Virus record (IMG/VR): IMGVR_UViG_2531839128_000009 | Direction: 5' to 3' (one strand) | DNA: 23,171 nt | From: a virus | Lineage: Duplodnaviria > Heunggongvirae > Uroviricota > Caudoviricetes | Shown: positions 296-10,947 of the stretch, piece by piece | Layout of the letters: every line of letters begins with the position of its first letter | Position numbering within the stretch: the stretch's first letter is position 1 | The notes under the pieces: model-generated | What the model saw: only the letters and a program-made list of their open reading frames with translations | Told to the model about the DNA's origin: nothing | Database searches by the model: none | Translations under genes and position numbers: made by a program

Positions 296-850
296 TCATT
301 TATCTCCAACCGGAAACTTCTTATACAGTGTCGATATACCAACATCATAGATGATCGCCACCTTCTGGCGAGGAACGCCTGATGCAATTAATCGCCCGGC
401 CTGCGCCCATTGTTCTGGTGTAAGTTTGGGACGACGTCCACCAATTCGTCCCTGTGCGCGAGCAGCTTCCAGTCCAGCTTTTGTTCGTTCAATAATCAGT
501 TCTCGTTCCATTTCAGCCAGGGCACCCATCACATGAAAGAAAAAACGCCCCATCGGTGTGCTGGTATCAATAGCATCCGTCAGGCTGCGAAAATTAACGC
601 CACGTTCGCGCAACTCCTCAACCAGAATGACCAGATGCCGCATACTACGCCCCAGCCGATCCAGCTTCCAGACAACCAGAGTGTCACCTGCCGATAATGT
701 CCTGAGCAGTTTTTTCAGTCCCGGCCTTTCGGACTTTGTACCGCTTATCTTGTCTTCAAAAATCAGCTCGCATCCTGCACAGTTCAGTGCATTACGTTGT
801 AGATCTGTGTTCTGGTCATTTGTTGACACGCGTACATAGCCAATAAGCAT
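296..850 (-). CDS. serine-recombinase DNA invertase, Hin/Gin/Pin/Cin family
   Basis: Translation begins MLIGYVRVSTNDQNTDLQRNAL…, with the catalytic-serine N-terminal motif, the conserved VVWKLDRLGRS and FFHVMGALAEMERELIIERT blocks and a C-terminal HTH tail, as in small DNA invertases. Start ATG 848-850 has a GGGGAG SD 7 nt upstream; the track ORF starts 12 codons earlier at another ATG. It sits directly outside the left crossover site. Confidence 0.93.
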   Translation of the reverse strand: MLIGYVRVSTNDQNTDLQRNALNCAGCELIFEDKISGTKSERPGLKKLLRTLSAGDTLVVWKLDRLGRSMRHLVILVEELRERGVNFRSLTDAIDTSTPMGRFFFHVMGALAEMERELIIERTKAGLEAARAQGRIGGRRPKLTPEQWAQAGRLIASGVPRQKVAIIYDVGISTLYKKFPVGDK

Positions 851-904
851 GGTAGATCTCCCCGACAAAAGCAGGAATGATGCCATTTGCTTGTTATTTC
901 TGCA

Positions 905-4967: not shown

Positions 4968-5320
4968 TACGCCTCCGATGTAACAGTCGTTATTCCATAG
5001 AGAGTGTCGATTTCAGCGGAAAACATGACACGTCGGGTCGTGGTATCCACCGTCGTATTGAAAGAGAGGATTGATTTAACGCCCCGCGTTTCCAGAATGC
5101 GTTTTCTGATCGCCAGGTTGTAAGTTTCCGGTTTTTGCCTGCCCAGCACGGACTGGATCCACGGAGTCCCCTCGGTGGTGTCGAGAAACCATTGCCCATA
5201 CCACAATTCGAATCGCGTTTTTACCGCCTGCGCCACGGCCTCCAGTGAGTTAATCAGCCAGGTGTCATCACCGCTGCCAAAGGTGTAATCGCCATCGGCG
5301 TCTTCACGTCTGTATCGCAT
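4967..5320 (-). CDS. small baseplate protein (gpW / gp25-like by position)
   Basis: 117-aa ORF between the spike-like and J-like genes. Assignment is from synteny. Confidence 0.6.
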   Translation of the reverse strand: MRYRREDADGDYTFGSGDDTWLINSLEAVAQAVKTRFELWYGQWFLDTTEGTPWIQSVLGRQKPETYNLAIRKRILETRGVKSILSFNTTVDTTTRRVMFSAEIDTLYGITTVTSEA

Positions 5321-6072
5321 TAGTTTACCCCATCGGTATTGCTTCCACCGCGCTGAACACCGCCATGAGTGTGCGTATCATCGATTGGCTTGCCGTTAGC
5401 CTTAACGCTCCCCAAGAACTCAACAGCACCAGTGATTTTTGAAGCCACACCAGAAACAACAGACCCCACCATGCCCCCCATCCAGGTTAACAGGCCATGA
5501 ATGGTTACTTTCTCAGAAAAATCAGCCAGAGGGGCAACCACATCAAGACCACCCGGGGCGACAATTTTAATTTTCCGGGTATCAGGATTAAGCTCAAAAT
5601 AGGTGCTGCCGTCGTCACTACGCAACTGTGTGGCACTGATATTAATACCGCTAATCTTCCTCGCCTGCGACTGGGGACCGGCTATACAAAACGCATCCGA
5701 TAAATCATGCATTCTGTCATCGACCGGCTCCTGTATCCCACCGCTCTGCCACCAGAAATCAATACAACGATCGGCAAAAACGACAAGACACTCATCCCCG
5801 GCTTTAACCGGAAAAGTCAACGTACAGCCTCCGCCGCGCGGAAATACCACTGGCACATCCACCAGCAACGGGTAATTTTTGGTAATGCGGTTACCGTCGT
5901 TATCCTTTTCAACCGAACGGATAGCTGGCTGTACAACCGCCGTCACCGCGTCGGGATCGAATGACTGAACAATGCCAGGCAAGGCGACACGGATCTGGTT
6001 CTTTGTTGTTTCCCGTTCAGATTTGAATGTTTCGGCAAGGTCGCCGCTGCGGGTCTGGTCAGATACTGCCAT
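5320..6072 (-). CDS. baseplate spike / gpV-like protein
   Basis: 250-aa ORF with a GGAG SD 8 nt upstream of ATG 6070-6072. Position and size fit a baseplate assembly V / central spike protein. Confidence 0.7.
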   Translation of the reverse strand: MAVSDQTRSGDLAETFKSERETTKNQIRVALPGIVQSFDPDAVTAVVQPAIRSVEKDNDGNRITKNYPLLVDVPVVFPRGGGCTLTFPVKAGDECLVVFADRCIDFWWQSGGIQEPVDDRMHDLSDAFCIAGPQSQARKISGINISATQLRSDDGSTYFELNPDTRKIKIVAPGGLDVVAPLADFSEKVTIHGLLTWMGGMVGSVVSGVASKITGAVEFLGSVKANGKPIDDTHTHGGVQRGGSNTDGVN

Positions 6073-6091: not shown

Positions 6092-6116
6092 AAAAAACCC
6101 GCCGGGTGGCGGGTTC
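6092..6116 (-). terminator. rho-independent terminator after the small membrane-protein gene
   Basis: Perfect 7-bp GC-rich stem ACCCGCC / GGCGGGT (6097-6103 and 6108-6114) with a 4-nt loop, followed on the minus strand by TTTTTTG. It lies 16 nt past the stop of 6132-6371. Confidence 0.75.
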
Positions 6117-6131
6117 ATTATTGAAGTTTCA

Positions 6132-6371
6132 TTACTGCTTGTTTGCTTCTAACGCTTCAGCTATTCGGCGAAGATACTCATTGTTTTTAAATGAAACCAT
6201 GATGCACTCAAAGAATATTCGGCAAAATACAGCACATAACAAAAGCACTAAAGCGCCAGCAGCCTTCCCATTAACAAACGTTATAATGGCGGCAACAACC
6301 AGAAGTAACATTGTGATGCCATACAGAACGTTGATGATTTTTGGAGTTATTAATTTATCAAATCCGAACAT
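6132..6371 (-). CDS. small two-TM membrane protein (inserted accessory gene, function unknown)
   Basis: 79-aa ORF with two hydrophobic stretches (IINVLYGITMLLLVVAAIITFV and AAGALVLLLCAVFCRIFFECIMV) and an AAGGA SD 9 nt upstream of the ATG. AT-rich by eye relative to flanking structural genes. Has its own promoter-like element and terminator. Confidence 0.8.
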   Translation of the reverse strand: MFGFDKLITPKIINVLYGITMLLLVVAAIITFVNGKAAGALVLLLCAVFCRIFFECIMVSFKNNEYLRRIAEALEANKQ

Positions 6372-6407
6372 GCGACAAATTCCTTATCGTGAAAGTAGAA
6401 GTACCAC

Positions 6408-6436
6408 ATTATAATTACGAGTGATTAATCAACAAT
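6408..6436 (-). promoter_or_regulatory. candidate sigma70 promoter for the small membrane-protein gene
   Basis: Minus-strand TATAAT (plus 6408-6413, perfect -10 consensus) with TTGTTG 16 bp upstream as a weak -35. Lies in the 53-bp gap between the two accessory genes, about 35 nt upstream of the ATG. Confidence 0.5.
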
Positions 6437-6766
6437 CTTTTTGCATGGAAAGGAACCGATGATTTTCGGCGCATCCATGCTGTTCTGCAGCAGTTGGACA
6501 TTCAGGAATCGCGTTTCGGTACCAGGGCGACGAATGTATTCAAAGCCGTAGTTGTTACCGTCTTTGGCAGGCATAAGCCCCATGTCTACTTTCAAACCAT
6601 TGGTACCCAGTTCGGTGATTTTTTGAGAGGTAACTCTTTCACCGTTGATTGTCGATAACTCGCCCTGGTTTGCAACCATAGTGTAGCCACCGCATTTAAC
6701 CGTGAAGCCATCCGCCCACGCGCTGCACGCAGAAAAGACAGCTAACAGAAAAATAATACCCCTCAT
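6425..6766 (-). CDS. small secreted / periplasmic protein of unknown function (accessory gene)
   Basis: 113-aa ORF with N-terminal signal peptide MRGIIFLLAVFSACSAWA followed by DG (AXA-type cleavage; a lipobox reading is less likely). Mature part has two Cys (CGG near the N-terminus, FPCKK near the C-terminus). AGGGGA SD; start is 3 nt after the upstream stop. Confidence 0.8.
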   Translation of the reverse strand: MRGIIFLLAVFSACSAWADGFTVKCGGYTMVANQGELSTINGERVTSQKITELGTNGLKVDMGLMPAKDGNNYGFEYIRRPGTETRFLNVQLLQNSMDAPKIIGSFPCKKIVD

Positions 6767-6769
6767 TGC

Positions 6770-7831
6770 TCATCCCCTTTGCAAAGCCGATTGCGTATAC
6801 AGATCCGCCGCGCCACGCGCTTCGCACATCATATCCATGTACCACGCCTGGCCTCTTGTATCGCCACTGTACATAATCCCGCGCACAATATAAACGCCAT
6901 CCGTTGCGATGCTGGCAGGCTGCGATGTGGTGCCGCTGAGCGTGATATTTCCGTCCGTGTTCTGGTCGGTGATCTGACCACCAGCCATCGCAATATCGTT
7001 GTTCGACAACGCGGTACGATAGACGGAAGCCTGATCCAGCTGAATGAGCCCGTTAACCCGGATGTTCGGATTAATAAGAGCGCGGACGTTTACGCCGTTG
7101 CCGATGGTCTGCTGCGGCATGCCAATAAGCCCGGTAGCACTGTTGAGCACAATCGCTTCGTGAACATATTCATTAGTCGCCACCATCTGGCGCTGACCGT
7201 CCACGAATTGCCATGTTGCGCCACATTGCCCGGCTACGTTATCCATTAGATGCCGCGTCATGCCAAAGAGCACCCGCCCCCGGGGGAATACAGTAGCAGG
7301 CATTTCAGGCGTCAGGCCTTCGGTCGCACCTTTGGCTTCGAAGTCTTTCATCAGCGCACGGTTCACATCAGCGACCGTGTAACCGGCAGCCAGCGTCTGT
7401 GAGGTTATACTGGTGGCAAAAGCCAGATCAGTATCTGCTGCCTGAATCAGGACGTAGGAATCAACCGGACTGTCTTTTCCTGTGACCGAGTAGCGAATTT
7501 CACCGCTGAAAATCAGTCCGTAGTTGCGGCCATCTCTCTGGCCCACGTCCGCCGCGTCAACTTCCCGCACGGTCCCTACGTCGCTTGCTGACACCTCCGG
7601 CGCGATACCGTCGTAACCGGCAATCAGACGCACTTTCGAAAATTCCTGCCCGGTGATTCGGTTCACAGTATCTGCCGAGAGGTTATAAATTTTGATAGTC
7701 CCTACCCGGGACGCGCTGCTGATGTTGAACCAGTCGATCGTAAAGGTGACTTTGAAATCACTTAGCTCAATTCCCTGACCGTTCCCGTCCACAAGCTGCA
7801 GCTCGAAATGTCTCATCCAGTTCTGTGACAT
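6770..7831 (-). CDS. baseplate hub-like protein (by position and size)
   Basis: 353-aa ORF in the baseplate block downstream of the tape measure. Assignment is from synteny. Confidence 0.6.
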   Translation of the reverse strand: MSQNWMRHFELQLVDGNGQGIELSDFKVTFTIDWFNISSASRVGTIKIYNLSADTVNRITGQEFSKVRLIAGYDGIAPEVSASDVGTVREVDAADVGQRDGRNYGLIFSGEIRYSVTGKDSPVDSYVLIQAADTDLAFATSITSQTLAAGYTVADVNRALMKDFEAKGATEGLTPEMPATVFPRGRVLFGMTRHLMDNVAGQCGATWQFVDGQRQMVATNEYVHEAIVLNSATGLIGMPQQTIGNGVNVRALINPNIRVNGLIQLDQASVYRTALSNNDIAMAGGQITDQNTDGNITLSGTTSQPASIATDGVYIVRGIMYSGDTRGQAWYMDMMCEARGAADLYTQSALQRG

Positions 7832-7833
7832 GC

Positions 7834-8136
7834 TTACTCCGTTGATACCAGTAAATGACTGAGGCCGCCCAGATCAGTTTTCGTGGGATAATCCTGTGTG
7901 TTGTCATCGCAGACCACCACCAGCTTAAAACCAAGTCCCATACAGGCGTACTGCGCCAGCAGGTCAGCACCAGTGACGAGAGGAATACCGGAGATTACCG
8001 GCTCCCCTCTGTCGTTCTGCAGGTCCATAATCCAGTACAGATCGCGCCATATGATGCTAATCCGCCAGGTAACACCACCCAGGACGATGCTGAACTGCTG
8101 GTTGTCCGCTGTCAGCGGAATTTCCTGAATTGTCAT
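7834..8136 (-). CDS. small tail / baseplate protein (hypothetical)
   Basis: 100-aa ORF tightly packed between neighbouring tail genes on the same strand. Confidence 0.55.
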   Translation of the reverse strand: MTIQEIPLTADNQQFSIVLGGVTWRISIIWRDLYWIMDLQNDRGEPVISGIPLVTGADLLAQYACMGLGFKLVVVCDDNTQDYPTKTDLGGLSHLLVSTE

Positions 8137-8723
8137 TAGCCGCCCCCCAGTAATGACGCCACGTTACCCGTGATGCTTTTCAGCAGTGAAGTATCTGGAG
8201 GCTTGGTGGTTTTGTTGCCGCTGTTCTGTACCGCCGACGTGCTGGCCCCTTCCTTCATGTTGGTTTTATCCGCGACGGTAATCTGCTGCGTCCGGGAGAT
8301 AAGGACCTCCCTCAGGGTGAGGACGGCGGACAGGACGTTTTCGGTTGTCTTGTCCGTCGTCACTTCCAGCGCCCGGATCAACATGTTGCTGTACAGTCGT
8401 TTACCGGTTACCACATCGAAGGGGATACGGCTTTCCTGCAGATCCAGTAGCTCCTGATACGTCTGCTGAGGACTCAGGCCGAGCAGGCTGGTAGCCGTCA
8501 GATTACTGGCAAAATCCAGCAATGCGCCGCCACCGGCGAAACCAACCTCCATCACCACTTCTGACGGTTTTTTATAGGCATGATCAGCGACAGCGGCCCC
8601 AACCTCTACCGGATGCTCTGTTATTTCAAGCATATCTGTATGCTTCTCTGAAATAACAACACTGGGAACAATCATTCCTATTTTTCTGCTCTGCTGATGA
8701 AAAAGTGTAGAGAGAATATCCAC
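8136..8723 (-). CDS. tail protein following the tape measure (hypothetical)
   Basis: 195-aa ORF whose start overlaps the tape measure stop, same strand. Confidence 0.6.
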   Translation of the reverse strand: MDILSTLFHQQSRKIGMIVPSVVISEKHTDMLEITEHPVEVGAAVADHAYKKPSEVVMEVGFAGGGALLDFASNLTATSLLGLSPQQTYQELLDLQESRIPFDVVTGKRLYSNMLIRALEVTTDKTTENVLSAVLTLREVLISRTQQITVADKTNMKEGASTSAVQNSGNKTTKPPDTSLLKSITGNVASLLGGG

Positions 8724-10712
8724 TAACCCACCCTCACCTGATTACTTCGCATGACCTGAGCATTTGCAGACTGTTGCCGACGTGCAACCTCATTACCGAC
8801 AGCGTGCGGATCTCCACCACCGTAAATGTGGTAGGTATTTTGCTGGTTAACCTCTGTCATTTTGCCACTAATTCCCGCCACGGCAGCCTTATTAATCAGC
8901 TCTCGAGAATAGATATTTCTTCCATTCTCATGCTGGATAATGCTGCTCATCAATGCTGACATGGTTTGCGGATCGCTCATATTCAGGGCAGCCCGGGGAT
9001 CCACTCCCAGTCGTTGCGATACAGCCCTGATATACGCAGTTGTGTTGTTATTATCAGACGCAGGTGCCCAAGTAGAGATAATTTTCTCCACACTGTTTAT
9101 TCCCCGTCCGGCGTACAGCATTAACTGACGAGCAAGAGCCCGTAATCCATCAAAAGCAGTTTCAAATCTGGCAAATCGCCCGCCCGGGCGTTCAAGAGAA
9201 GCCCCTGCCTGACCAGCAAAATTAAGGTTTCCCGGATTGTTATTCCGTTCTCCTCGTTTCGTAGCCTGTGCATATTGTTCCGGCTCATCATCACCAAACC
9301 AGCCGCGTACCGTCCGGCCCACACTGCGGGGATCGAATCCCCAGTGCTCTTTAATCCAGTCGGCAGTACTGTTAGCGCTGTCTGTAACCATCGGCATCGC
9401 TGACGGATTTTCGCTGCCCTGATTAAGTATCTGTTTGCCGATGATGACGGCATCAGCCCAGCGGCCATCTTTGATAGCGTTGAGCAGGTCGGCGATCATG
9501 TTCAGCATTTTGCTGAATTCGCCCATCTGGTCGATGAAGTTGCTGAAATCCCACTTCAGGGACCATGATTTTGGGTCAATATTGAGCAGTTTCGCCAGCG
9601 CTTTCGCCAGTTCATTAACAGACCCTTTCAGGTCACGAACCATCTTCAGCGCGGCATCGACCTCCGGCTTCCACTTGCCCCAGTCAATCAGGCTGTCGCC
9701 GCCTTCCTTCCAGGTCTGATAGTCCTCCCACAGAAGGGCAATCCCCGCCGCCAGCGCGGTAATGAGACCAATCGGCGACATCCAGAACGTACTGTTCAGA
9801 ATGCGCAGCGCAATCGTCAGCGCGCCAAACAGCGAGATGAGCTCCCGCGTTTGCTTATCCAGCGATTGCCACCAGGTGATAAGGCTGGATGTTCCCTCAA
9901 TTAGCCTGAAGAACAGCCGCCCGATGATGTCTCCGATCGCCAGAATGCCTTTTATGGCTTTCGTCAGGGTCTGCTCGATACGAGGGAAGTTGTCCAGGAT
10001 ATGGCGGCGCAGGGTGTCCAGCGAACCCGCAAGCCCACCCGCAAGATTAGAGCCGATTTTGTCACGGGCCATGCCTGCCATCGCGCCGAACTCGCGCAGG
10101 GAGGTCATGAATTTGTTGGAGCTTCTGGCCGCCTCGTCAGCATTGAAGCCGATAGCTTTCGCCATTGCGCTGTACTGCCCGGAGCCCCCCCCCCACACCC
10201 CGGCGCATCGCCATAAGGGTATTTTCGTCAATGCCCAGCATCTGCGCATACTGGTTAGCCCGGTAATACGGCATGCTGCTGAGCTTCTGGCCGACGCCCG
10301 TAAAGATAGCGGCCATGTCGCGCATGTTACCGCTGGCGTCACGGGTCTGTACCCCCAGACGATTCAGAAATCCCTCCGCCCCGGGGTTATTACGGATAAA
10401 ACGGGCAAGGCTCTCCAGTGACCCGCGCGCAGCGTCCACGCTGCCGCCAACCTGCGAAACCGCATAGCCAATAGACTGAATTCCCTGGACTGTCGCGCCG
10501 GTGCGCTGTGACGCCCAGTAAAGATTATCCAGGCCGGAGGCGATCTTAGCCGTGAAGGCCACCACGGACAGCGCAGCTCCTTCAACGGCCAGTCCCATTT
10601 TGATGACATTTGCAGTTGTACCGGCGAGGACAGAACCGAACTTTTTCGCTCCTGCATCATCCACACTGAAGCCAAGCGAGACGAGGAAATCTTTAATAGT
10701 TTCAGCGTTCAT
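8723..10712 (-). pseudogene. tail tape measure protein, frame interrupted in a homopolymer tract
   Basis: Two overlapping minus-strand ORFs (10137-10733 and 8723-10342) in different frames both give tape-measure-like sequence, and switch frame exactly at the C10 run 10185-10194. Removing one base restores a continuous roughly 660-aa protein reading …MAMRRGVGGGSGQYSAMAKAIGF…. Start ATG 10710-10712 has a GGAGAGAGGA SD. Confidence 0.8.
10185..10194. repeat. C10 (G10 on the coding strand) homopolymer inside the tape measure gene
   Basis: Ten consecutive C counted on the plus strand; they encode Gly-Gly-Gly in either frame. A length of 9 or 12 would be in frame. Confidence 0.9.
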
Positions 10713-10947
10713 TATCCTCTCTCCATTTCTCAATGCGCCGCTGGTTATCCGCTTTTACCGCCAGATGGTCATTCAAGAGAGCAATGTCATACAAATCGAC
10801 AGAGCCATCTTTAAGTGCTGTATAGGGAATTAACCCGGCGTCAACCGGATTGAGAAGGTAGGACAGCCCGTCCGGCAGGCTGTTAAACGTCAGCCCTGTT
10901 GCAGGCTCTGCGTCGTGCTGGTAAGGGGTGTAGGCAAAAAATTTCCC
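10702..10947 (-). other. -1 programmed frameshift signal and extension frame of the tail chaperone
   Basis: Coding-strand GGGAAATTTTTTG (plus 10935-10947) contains two overlapping heptamers, G_GGA_AAT and T_TTT_TTG, in the zero frame 16 codons before its stop. The -1 frame is open from there for 79 codons to TGA 10702-10704, overlapping the tape measure start. Predicted fusion is about 210 aa. Confidence 0.7.

Follow-up and report, generated by a model that had tools for sequence, protein, structure and literature searches.

The gene at positions 6425–6766 (minus strand) of IMG/VR record IMGVR_UViG_2531839128_000009, a stretch of 23,171 nucleotides analysed at its full length and here called the window, encodes a 113-residue protein that is very probably an exported, non-structural accessory protein. 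The window represents the head-tail region of a contractile-tailed E. coli prophage, SEN34-like (Brunovirus-type), and the gene, a subtype A member of the phrog_3443 family, lies directly behind the gene for the baseplate hub. By analogy with other envelope-located phage proteins we tentatively propose that its product acts in phage exclusion.

The open reading frame (ORF) starts with ATG, ends with a stop codon at 6425–6427, and begins 3 nucleotides past the stop of the hub gene (6770–7831, minus strand; 353 residues; phrog_196 baseplate hub, E 1e-88; NF047561; a weak match to PF22759, E217_GP41). Read on the minus strand, the junction (6767–6772) is TGA-GCA-ATG, the TGA being the hub stop (6770–6772), and a Shine-Dalgarno sequence, GGGGA, lies 6 nucleotides upstream of the ATG within the last codons of the hub. 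The original prediction had placed the 113-residue ORF 3 nucleotides behind the hub stop and considered it translationally coupled, which the junction and the GGGGA site bear out; it had given the span as 6425–6772, of which the ORF holds and the end coordinate does not, since 6772 includes the hub stop codon and the ORF ends at 6766. Pairwise ratios of nonsynonymous to synonymous substitution (dN/dS) in the family are 0.06–0.2, values of purifying selection that mark a functional coding gene and exclude a chance ORF. The exact 711-bp cassette around the gene was found in 41 of 5426 complete E. coli genomes, and its two genes carry the RefSeq names 'hypothetical protein' (the exported protein) and 'DUF4282 domain-containing protein'; some part of the window is matched in 4557 of these genomes, SEN34-like tail sequences being widespread.

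The gene product is, judged from its sequence, exported. Its N-terminus, MRGIIFLLAVFSACSAWA|DG, consists of a charged n-region, a hydrophobic core and an A-x-A site, so that residues 1–18 (MRGIIFLLAVFSACSAWA; 6713–6766, minus strand) form a predicted signal peptide with cleavage by signal peptidase I after AWA. In a crude three-part signal test only this ORF and the neighbouring membrane-protein ORF passed among the 27 genes of the window, and 96 of 131 full-length family members passed the same test, the failures coming almost entirely from gene calls truncated at the 5' end or wrongly extended. All subtypes, and full-length relatives down to about 25% identity, retain the n/h/c architecture despite a drifting signal sequence, and this conservation in homologues, together with the small residues at −1 and −3, is what is expected of a Sec signal processed by signal peptidase I. 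The mature protein is hydrophilic. Two cysteines, C25 and C108, are invariant throughout the family, again down to about 25% identity, and the secretion signal and the two cysteines placed for a disulfide that had been noticed in the single sequence are thus family-wide traits. A third cysteine, C14 (FSAC, within the signal peptide), makes a weak lipobox-like site that is not conserved, F, G, S or A standing there in most subtypes; the family is therefore exported via signal peptidase I and not lipidated. We accordingly rejected a lipoprotein reading, which calls for an invariant +1 cysteine and which the original prediction had listed as an option; a canonical lipobox, LSGC, was seen only in a fusion relative (P0146).

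The only profile matched by the 113-residue protein is phrog_3443 (E 1.4e-47; residues 2–112 against 2–114 of the 115 profile positions, and thus full length), a family without assigned function. No match was found in Pfam, NCBIfam, PADLOC, the PHROG structural families or PDB sequences. The possibility of similarity to lysozyme inhibitors, raised earlier, found no support in Pfam, where MliC/PliC (PF09864) was matched neither by the query at E 0.1 nor by 25 members at E 10. The family comprises 396 clusters at 90% identity, with 40 representatives in a library of 1.84 billion proteins, and its named members are nearly all from Enterobacterales. Five very long predicted proteins (P0123, P0142, P0144, P0153 and P0157; 916–5298 residues) match the family profile in up to 20 separate stretches and probably represent erroneous gene calls in public data.

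A structure model of the mature 95 residues (6428–6712, minus strand) is all-beta, a soluble eight-stranded up-and-down barrel with a predicted local distance difference test score (pLDDT) of 93.6; this usable model came from an alignment to which distant relatives had been added, an earlier one from a shallow alignment having reached a pLDDT of only 55. The modelled strands are too short and too polar for a membrane barrel. The invariant cysteines, Cys7 in the first strand and Cys90 in the last strand of the mature domain, would form a disulfide that staples the barrel from N- to C-terminus. Two loop motifs, PAKDGNNYG and NSMDAPK, are conserved. The relatives in fold are generic, avidins and then, lower in the list, PliC-type inhibitors, none of them significant.

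We compared 85 loci, comprising 80 IMG/VR loci with a hub at least 96% identical and five annotated phages. The exported-protein gene immediately follows the hub gene in SEN34, Klebsiella phage Mulock, E. coli phage vB_EcoM-689R2 and Yersinia phage YP3, and in relatives the gene in this slot starts from −1 to +5 nucleotides from the hub stop regardless of the family that occupies it. On its downstream side the slot is flanked by the gene for the baseplate spike (5320–6072, minus strand; 250 residues; N-terminal PF18352 and a GpV Apex motif). Across the 80 IMG/VR loci the tape measure C-terminus, Dit, plug, hub, spike N-terminus, gpW-like sheath initiator and gpJ-like wedge protein are 96–100% identical; the exported protein is 54–100% identical among the same loci and falls into at least six subtypes, between which synonymous divergence is saturated. 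In 8 of the 85 loci the slot is filled by an unrelated exported protein, either a secreted protein of 153–158 residues or a lipoprotein of 241 residues with an LTSC lipobox (one further locus, cut at a contig end, was left unscored for replacement). Three of the loci (L056, L080 and L082) keep, behind the replacement gene, a 15-residue remnant of the 3' end of the family gene. Export is thus the property shared by all occupants of the slot, which points to a function in the envelope.

The replacement proteins, exemplified by the 153-residue secreted protein at L059:5068–5529 and the 241-residue lipoprotein at L060:5068–5793, matched no Pfam or PHROG family, and phage databases assigned them no function either; Hafnia phage yong1 encodes a homologue of the former at 62% identity. 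Members of the phrog_3443 family itself were also seen in other settings. A 292-residue lipoprotein, the LSGC-bearing fusion relative already mentioned, again directly after a hub, carries the family domain at its C-terminus (L087:6001–6879); a decayed prophage that has lost its hub retains a copy (L094:5001–5342); and a chromosomal, non-prophage homologue of 118 residues in Mixta calida, about 25% identical, has a signal peptide and both cysteines (L091:5001–5357). The Mixta gene is flanked by cls/yciY on one side and yciI on the other, and 166 contigs carry it in identical form; a scan of genome contigs for homologues of its type returned spurious weak matches only. The phage family may have been derived from, or domesticated as, a host periplasmic protein.

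The variation of the exported protein is not mirrored elsewhere in the tail. A co-varying partner was sought within 10 kb on either side (tape measure, Dit, plug, spike, sheath initiator, gpJ-like and gpI-like wedges, fibre and head genes) and none was found, the subtype showing a rho of 0.13 with the tape measure and of 0.21 with the spike C-terminus, and an adjusted mutual information of 0.08 with fibre type. The sole association of subtype was with the immediately adjacent end of the hub gene, which physical linkage explains; in sliding identity plots the left breakpoint falls in the last ~30 nucleotides of that gene. Rapid positive selection was rejected as the source of the diversity, since dN/dS is about 0.1–0.2 and dS between subtypes is saturated, values that instead indicate old alleles shuffled by recombination.

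These comparisons bear directly on whether the protein could be a minor component of the baseplate or tail tip, or an assembly factor, with a hydrophobic N-terminus that is no cleaved export signal. Such a role would suit a gene that is coupled to the hub and keeps its position between hub and spike across divergent phages. It does not account for the conserved A-x-A site and the invariant cysteine pair of periplasmic type, nor for the lipoprotein or other secreted protein that substitutes beside a hub and spike 97% identical, and it would lead one to expect covariation with structural proteins, of which there is none. The baseplate of Pam3, solved by cryo-electron microscopy, comprises gp18–gp24 and shares this gene order, its hub gene lying next to its spike gene; the structure is complete at six components (PMC9942802), among which the 113-residue protein has no counterpart; nor was a confident match to a known baseplate family found in the four collections (Pfam, the PHROG structural families, NCBIfam and PDB sequences) in which one was looked for. 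Non-homologous replacement, the lack of covariation and the complete Pam3 baseplate together make a structural role very unlikely, and we regard this explanation as the least probable by far of those considered. The earlier view that the product is unlikely to be structural is thereby upheld. The virion proteome of Klebsiella phage MMNM was also considered and set aside as uninformative here, coming from an unrelated phage.

What the protein does in the envelope is a matter for more tentative argument. On the evidence of the sequence it is translated from the late tail transcript through coupling to the hub gene, as a precursor with a conserved Sec-type signal, and we propose that the mature barrel, presumably stapled by its disulfide, would act in the periplasm on a target other than its neighbouring tail proteins. 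The slot itself is a fixed place for an exported protein, in which ancient subtypes or unrelated secreted proteins and lipoproteins are exchanged by recombination while the tail genes stay constant. The most likely action would be interference with the periplasmic stage of infection by an incoming phage, that is, superinfection exclusion, as for other envelope-located phage accessory proteins, and we put this forward as plausible, a little short of an even chance. The gene also abuts a hot spot with toxin-antitoxin and defence-like cargo, an accessory context. Moreover, the tape measure (8723–10733, minus strand) has a C-terminal part (8723–9400, minus strand) that resembles the solved endolysin 7q47 (E 1e-13) and Gp29 of 9vvp (E 2e-20), its RefSeq name is 'lytic transglycosylase', and the protein of one relative has a Pfam SLT domain; it thus carries a muralytic domain, and a target of the kind inhibited by T4 Spackle exists. 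A broader proposal, which we consider possible and hold more loosely, is that SEN34-like myoviruses keep a hub-coupled slot for a periplasm-exported effector, that the barrel family is a new class of periplasmic phage excluder or tail-tip decoy, and that subtypes and replacements give different exclusion specificities.

Several observations weigh against phage exclusion. The region upstream of the gene yielded no sigma-70-like promoter, so that only late, hub-coupled expression is supported, a poor fit with exclusion by a lysogen. Klebsiella phage ST340-VIM1phi10.1, with a hub of no more than 51% identity, still has the gene next to the hub, and a Serratia-type relative sits between plug and hub (L092:371–709); a position kept over such deep divergence could mean a role tied to the tail tip. 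The search of PADLOC returned no match and no known exclusion family was matched, Foldseek against BFVD and PDB gave nothing significant, and the fold is generic. A Spackle-style action in particular is weakened by a muralytic domain that is constant while the exported protein varies, and the isoelectric points of the two, 8.0 for the 113-residue protein and 10.4 for the muralytic domain, are both basic, which is weak evidence against a complex of that style.

Two other roles for an exported protein were weighed against exclusion. The protein might benefit the host as a lysogenic conversion factor, being a periplasmic binding or inhibitor barrel directed at lysozyme, a type VI peptidoglycan-hydrolase effector or a colicin, or sequestering a small ligand in the manner of avidin- and calycin-type barrels. 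The strong conservation of the PAKDGNNYG and NSMDAPK loops, consistent with a putative binding site, speaks for such a factor, as do the chromosomal Mixta calida homologue and the copy kept in the decayed prophage remnant; yet neither MliC nor any other Pfam family was matched even at E 10, Foldseek returned no significant match, the family is almost confined to one position of one phage tail module, and inspection for promoters gave no sign of expression during lysogeny, so that we think a host-benefit role unlikely. Less probable still is a role in support of the lytic cycle, with synthesis alongside the tail proteins and late export, in which the protein would tune lysis or protect the producing cell and the progeny from lysis from without and from wasteful ejection into infected cells or debris. 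The tight coupling of any occupant of the slot to a late gene and the want of a promoter of its own would both be natural for such a helper, and sibling virions would indeed bring the muralytic domain of the tape measure into the periplasm. However, no virion part, the tape measure included, covaries with subtype, the unrelated replacements imply a generic function rather than one tailored to this phage, and the protein resembles neither a spanin nor a holin.

Downstream of the exported-protein gene lies a second small gene (6132–6371, minus strand; GC content 37–42%), which encodes a 79-residue DUF4282 protein with two transmembrane helices (PF14110, E 1e-10). The 53-bp spacer holds a perfect TATAAT box for it (6408–6413), accompanied by a weak −35; with a strong terminator of its own as well, the gene is of classic moron design when compared with the morons described in PMC3594210. 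The exported-protein gene has some traits of a moron: it is an extra gene, absent from the collinear Pam3 order, and is horizontally exchanged, being swapped beside flanks 96–100% identical; it shows no promoter-like site, and its GC content (44–48%, against 52–58% in the flanks) is only mildly lower. The DUF4282 gene occupies a cargo hot spot (6095–6570, minus strand) in which loci L001–L085 hold at least 12 cargo sets beside near-identical tail genes, among them a YafO-type toxin pair, a HEPN-like pair, a DUF2335 membrane protein, a PycTM-like protein and, here, DUF4282. On the left the hot spot is anchored for recombination by the conserved 3' third of the exported-protein gene (FLNVQLLQNSMDAPKIIGSFPCKK; 6450–6570, minus strand), which is 80–100% identical in nucleotides between subtypes, and on the right it is bounded by a conserved intrinsic terminator hairpin just upstream of the spike gene (6095–6116, minus strand; a 9-bp stem with six GC pairs, followed by a T run), where identity between relatives resumes. 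A chimeric locus (L070) joins a subtype D 5' part to a 3' part identical to that of the window, followed by the DUF4282 gene.

The original prediction had suggested that the exported protein and the membrane protein form a periplasmic-plus-inner-membrane pair. This is not supported: DUF4282 accompanies 13 of about 38 subtype A copies and also two subtype D copies, so that it is no obligate partner of the exported protein, and it is one of at least 12 alternative cargoes with a −10 box and terminator of its own. An obligate two-gene system was rejected on these grounds, and a spanin or lysis pair likewise, the second gene being interchangeable and no coiled-coil or Rz1-like protein being present.

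In the remainder of the tail module, upstream of the hub on the minus strand lie a Pam3-gp18-type plug (7834–8136), a Dit-like tube initiator (8136–8723) and the tape measure gene; after the spike come the sheath initiator, baseplate J and DUF2612 wedge genes, and then the fibre. In the window the tape measure gene is split into two ORFs (10137–10733 and 8723–10342) by a +1 frameshift at a run of ten G (minus strand; 10185–10194). An intact gene with a GGTGGCTT-type sequence at this point is present in forty other related loci and in E. coli Rb-50, and the ten-G run is common only to a 100% identical IMG/VR contig; the run reflects either an error of sequencing or a mutation that inactivates the gene. 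A gene for a serine invertase of Hin/Gin type, identified solely by visual inspection of its translation, adjoins an oppositely oriented alternative fibre C-terminus and fibre-assembly ORFs (296–886, minus strand; 877–2219), an arrangement that, from the sequence, looks like an invertible host-range switch. Fibre C-termini are hypervariable in the relatives, with 40 types among 55 loci.

Searches of the literature on SEN34, Brunovirus and hot spots turned up nothing on the exported-protein gene or its site, and the combination of slot and hot spot appears not to have been described so far. An exported prophage accessory gene in a tail operon is of a well-known kind, and it is the family that is uncharacterised. 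Were the protein generic periplasmic cargo, it would be ordinary, another uncharacterised prophage accessory gene. Known accessory proteins that are directed to the envelope and encoded within or next to sets of tail genes mostly keep superinfecting phages out, as HK97 gp15 and T5 Llp do, or modify the host surface, as lambda Lom does. Lambda Lom and Bor, T5 Llp, and Cor are exported accessory products of genes within or next to tail gene blocks, and they alter the host envelope or prevent reinfection. They are either barrels of the outer membrane or lipoproteins, whereas the 113-residue protein lacks a conserved lipobox cysteine and has strands unsuited to a membrane barrel.

A parallel in genetic setting is HK97 gp15, a moron of the tail operon whose product acts at the envelope to exclude superinfecting phages (PMC3594210). 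Both are small, envelope-targeted accessory genes among tail genes, exchangeable between related phages, and both have a host chromosomal homologue, YebO for gp15 and the Mixta calida gene for the 113-residue protein. They differ in that gp15 is an inner-membrane protein expressed from the prophage with its own promoter and terminator, while the 113-residue protein is modelled as a soluble periplasmic barrel and is hub-coupled with no detectable promoter, and the two are unrelated in sequence and fold. T4 Spackle, an alpha-helical bundle encoded by an early gene, is a periplasmic excluder that inhibits the tail lysozyme gp5 (PMC7677548). It shares with the 113-residue protein its small size, its periplasmic location, a cleaved signal and one disulfide (the last three predicted here), and both phages deliver a muralytic domain; Spackle is, however, alpha-helical and early and the 113-residue protein is all-beta in the model and late-coupled, so that the Spackle fold is not found here. 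Few envelope-level exclusion proteins are known, namely T4 Spackle and Imm, HK97 gp15, P1 Sim, P22 SieA and the Llp and Cor lipoproteins. If the 113-residue protein blocks infection from the periplasm, it would be a structurally new and easily testable addition to them, and the adjacent cargo site would offer a new hot spot of prophages in which to look for defence genes.
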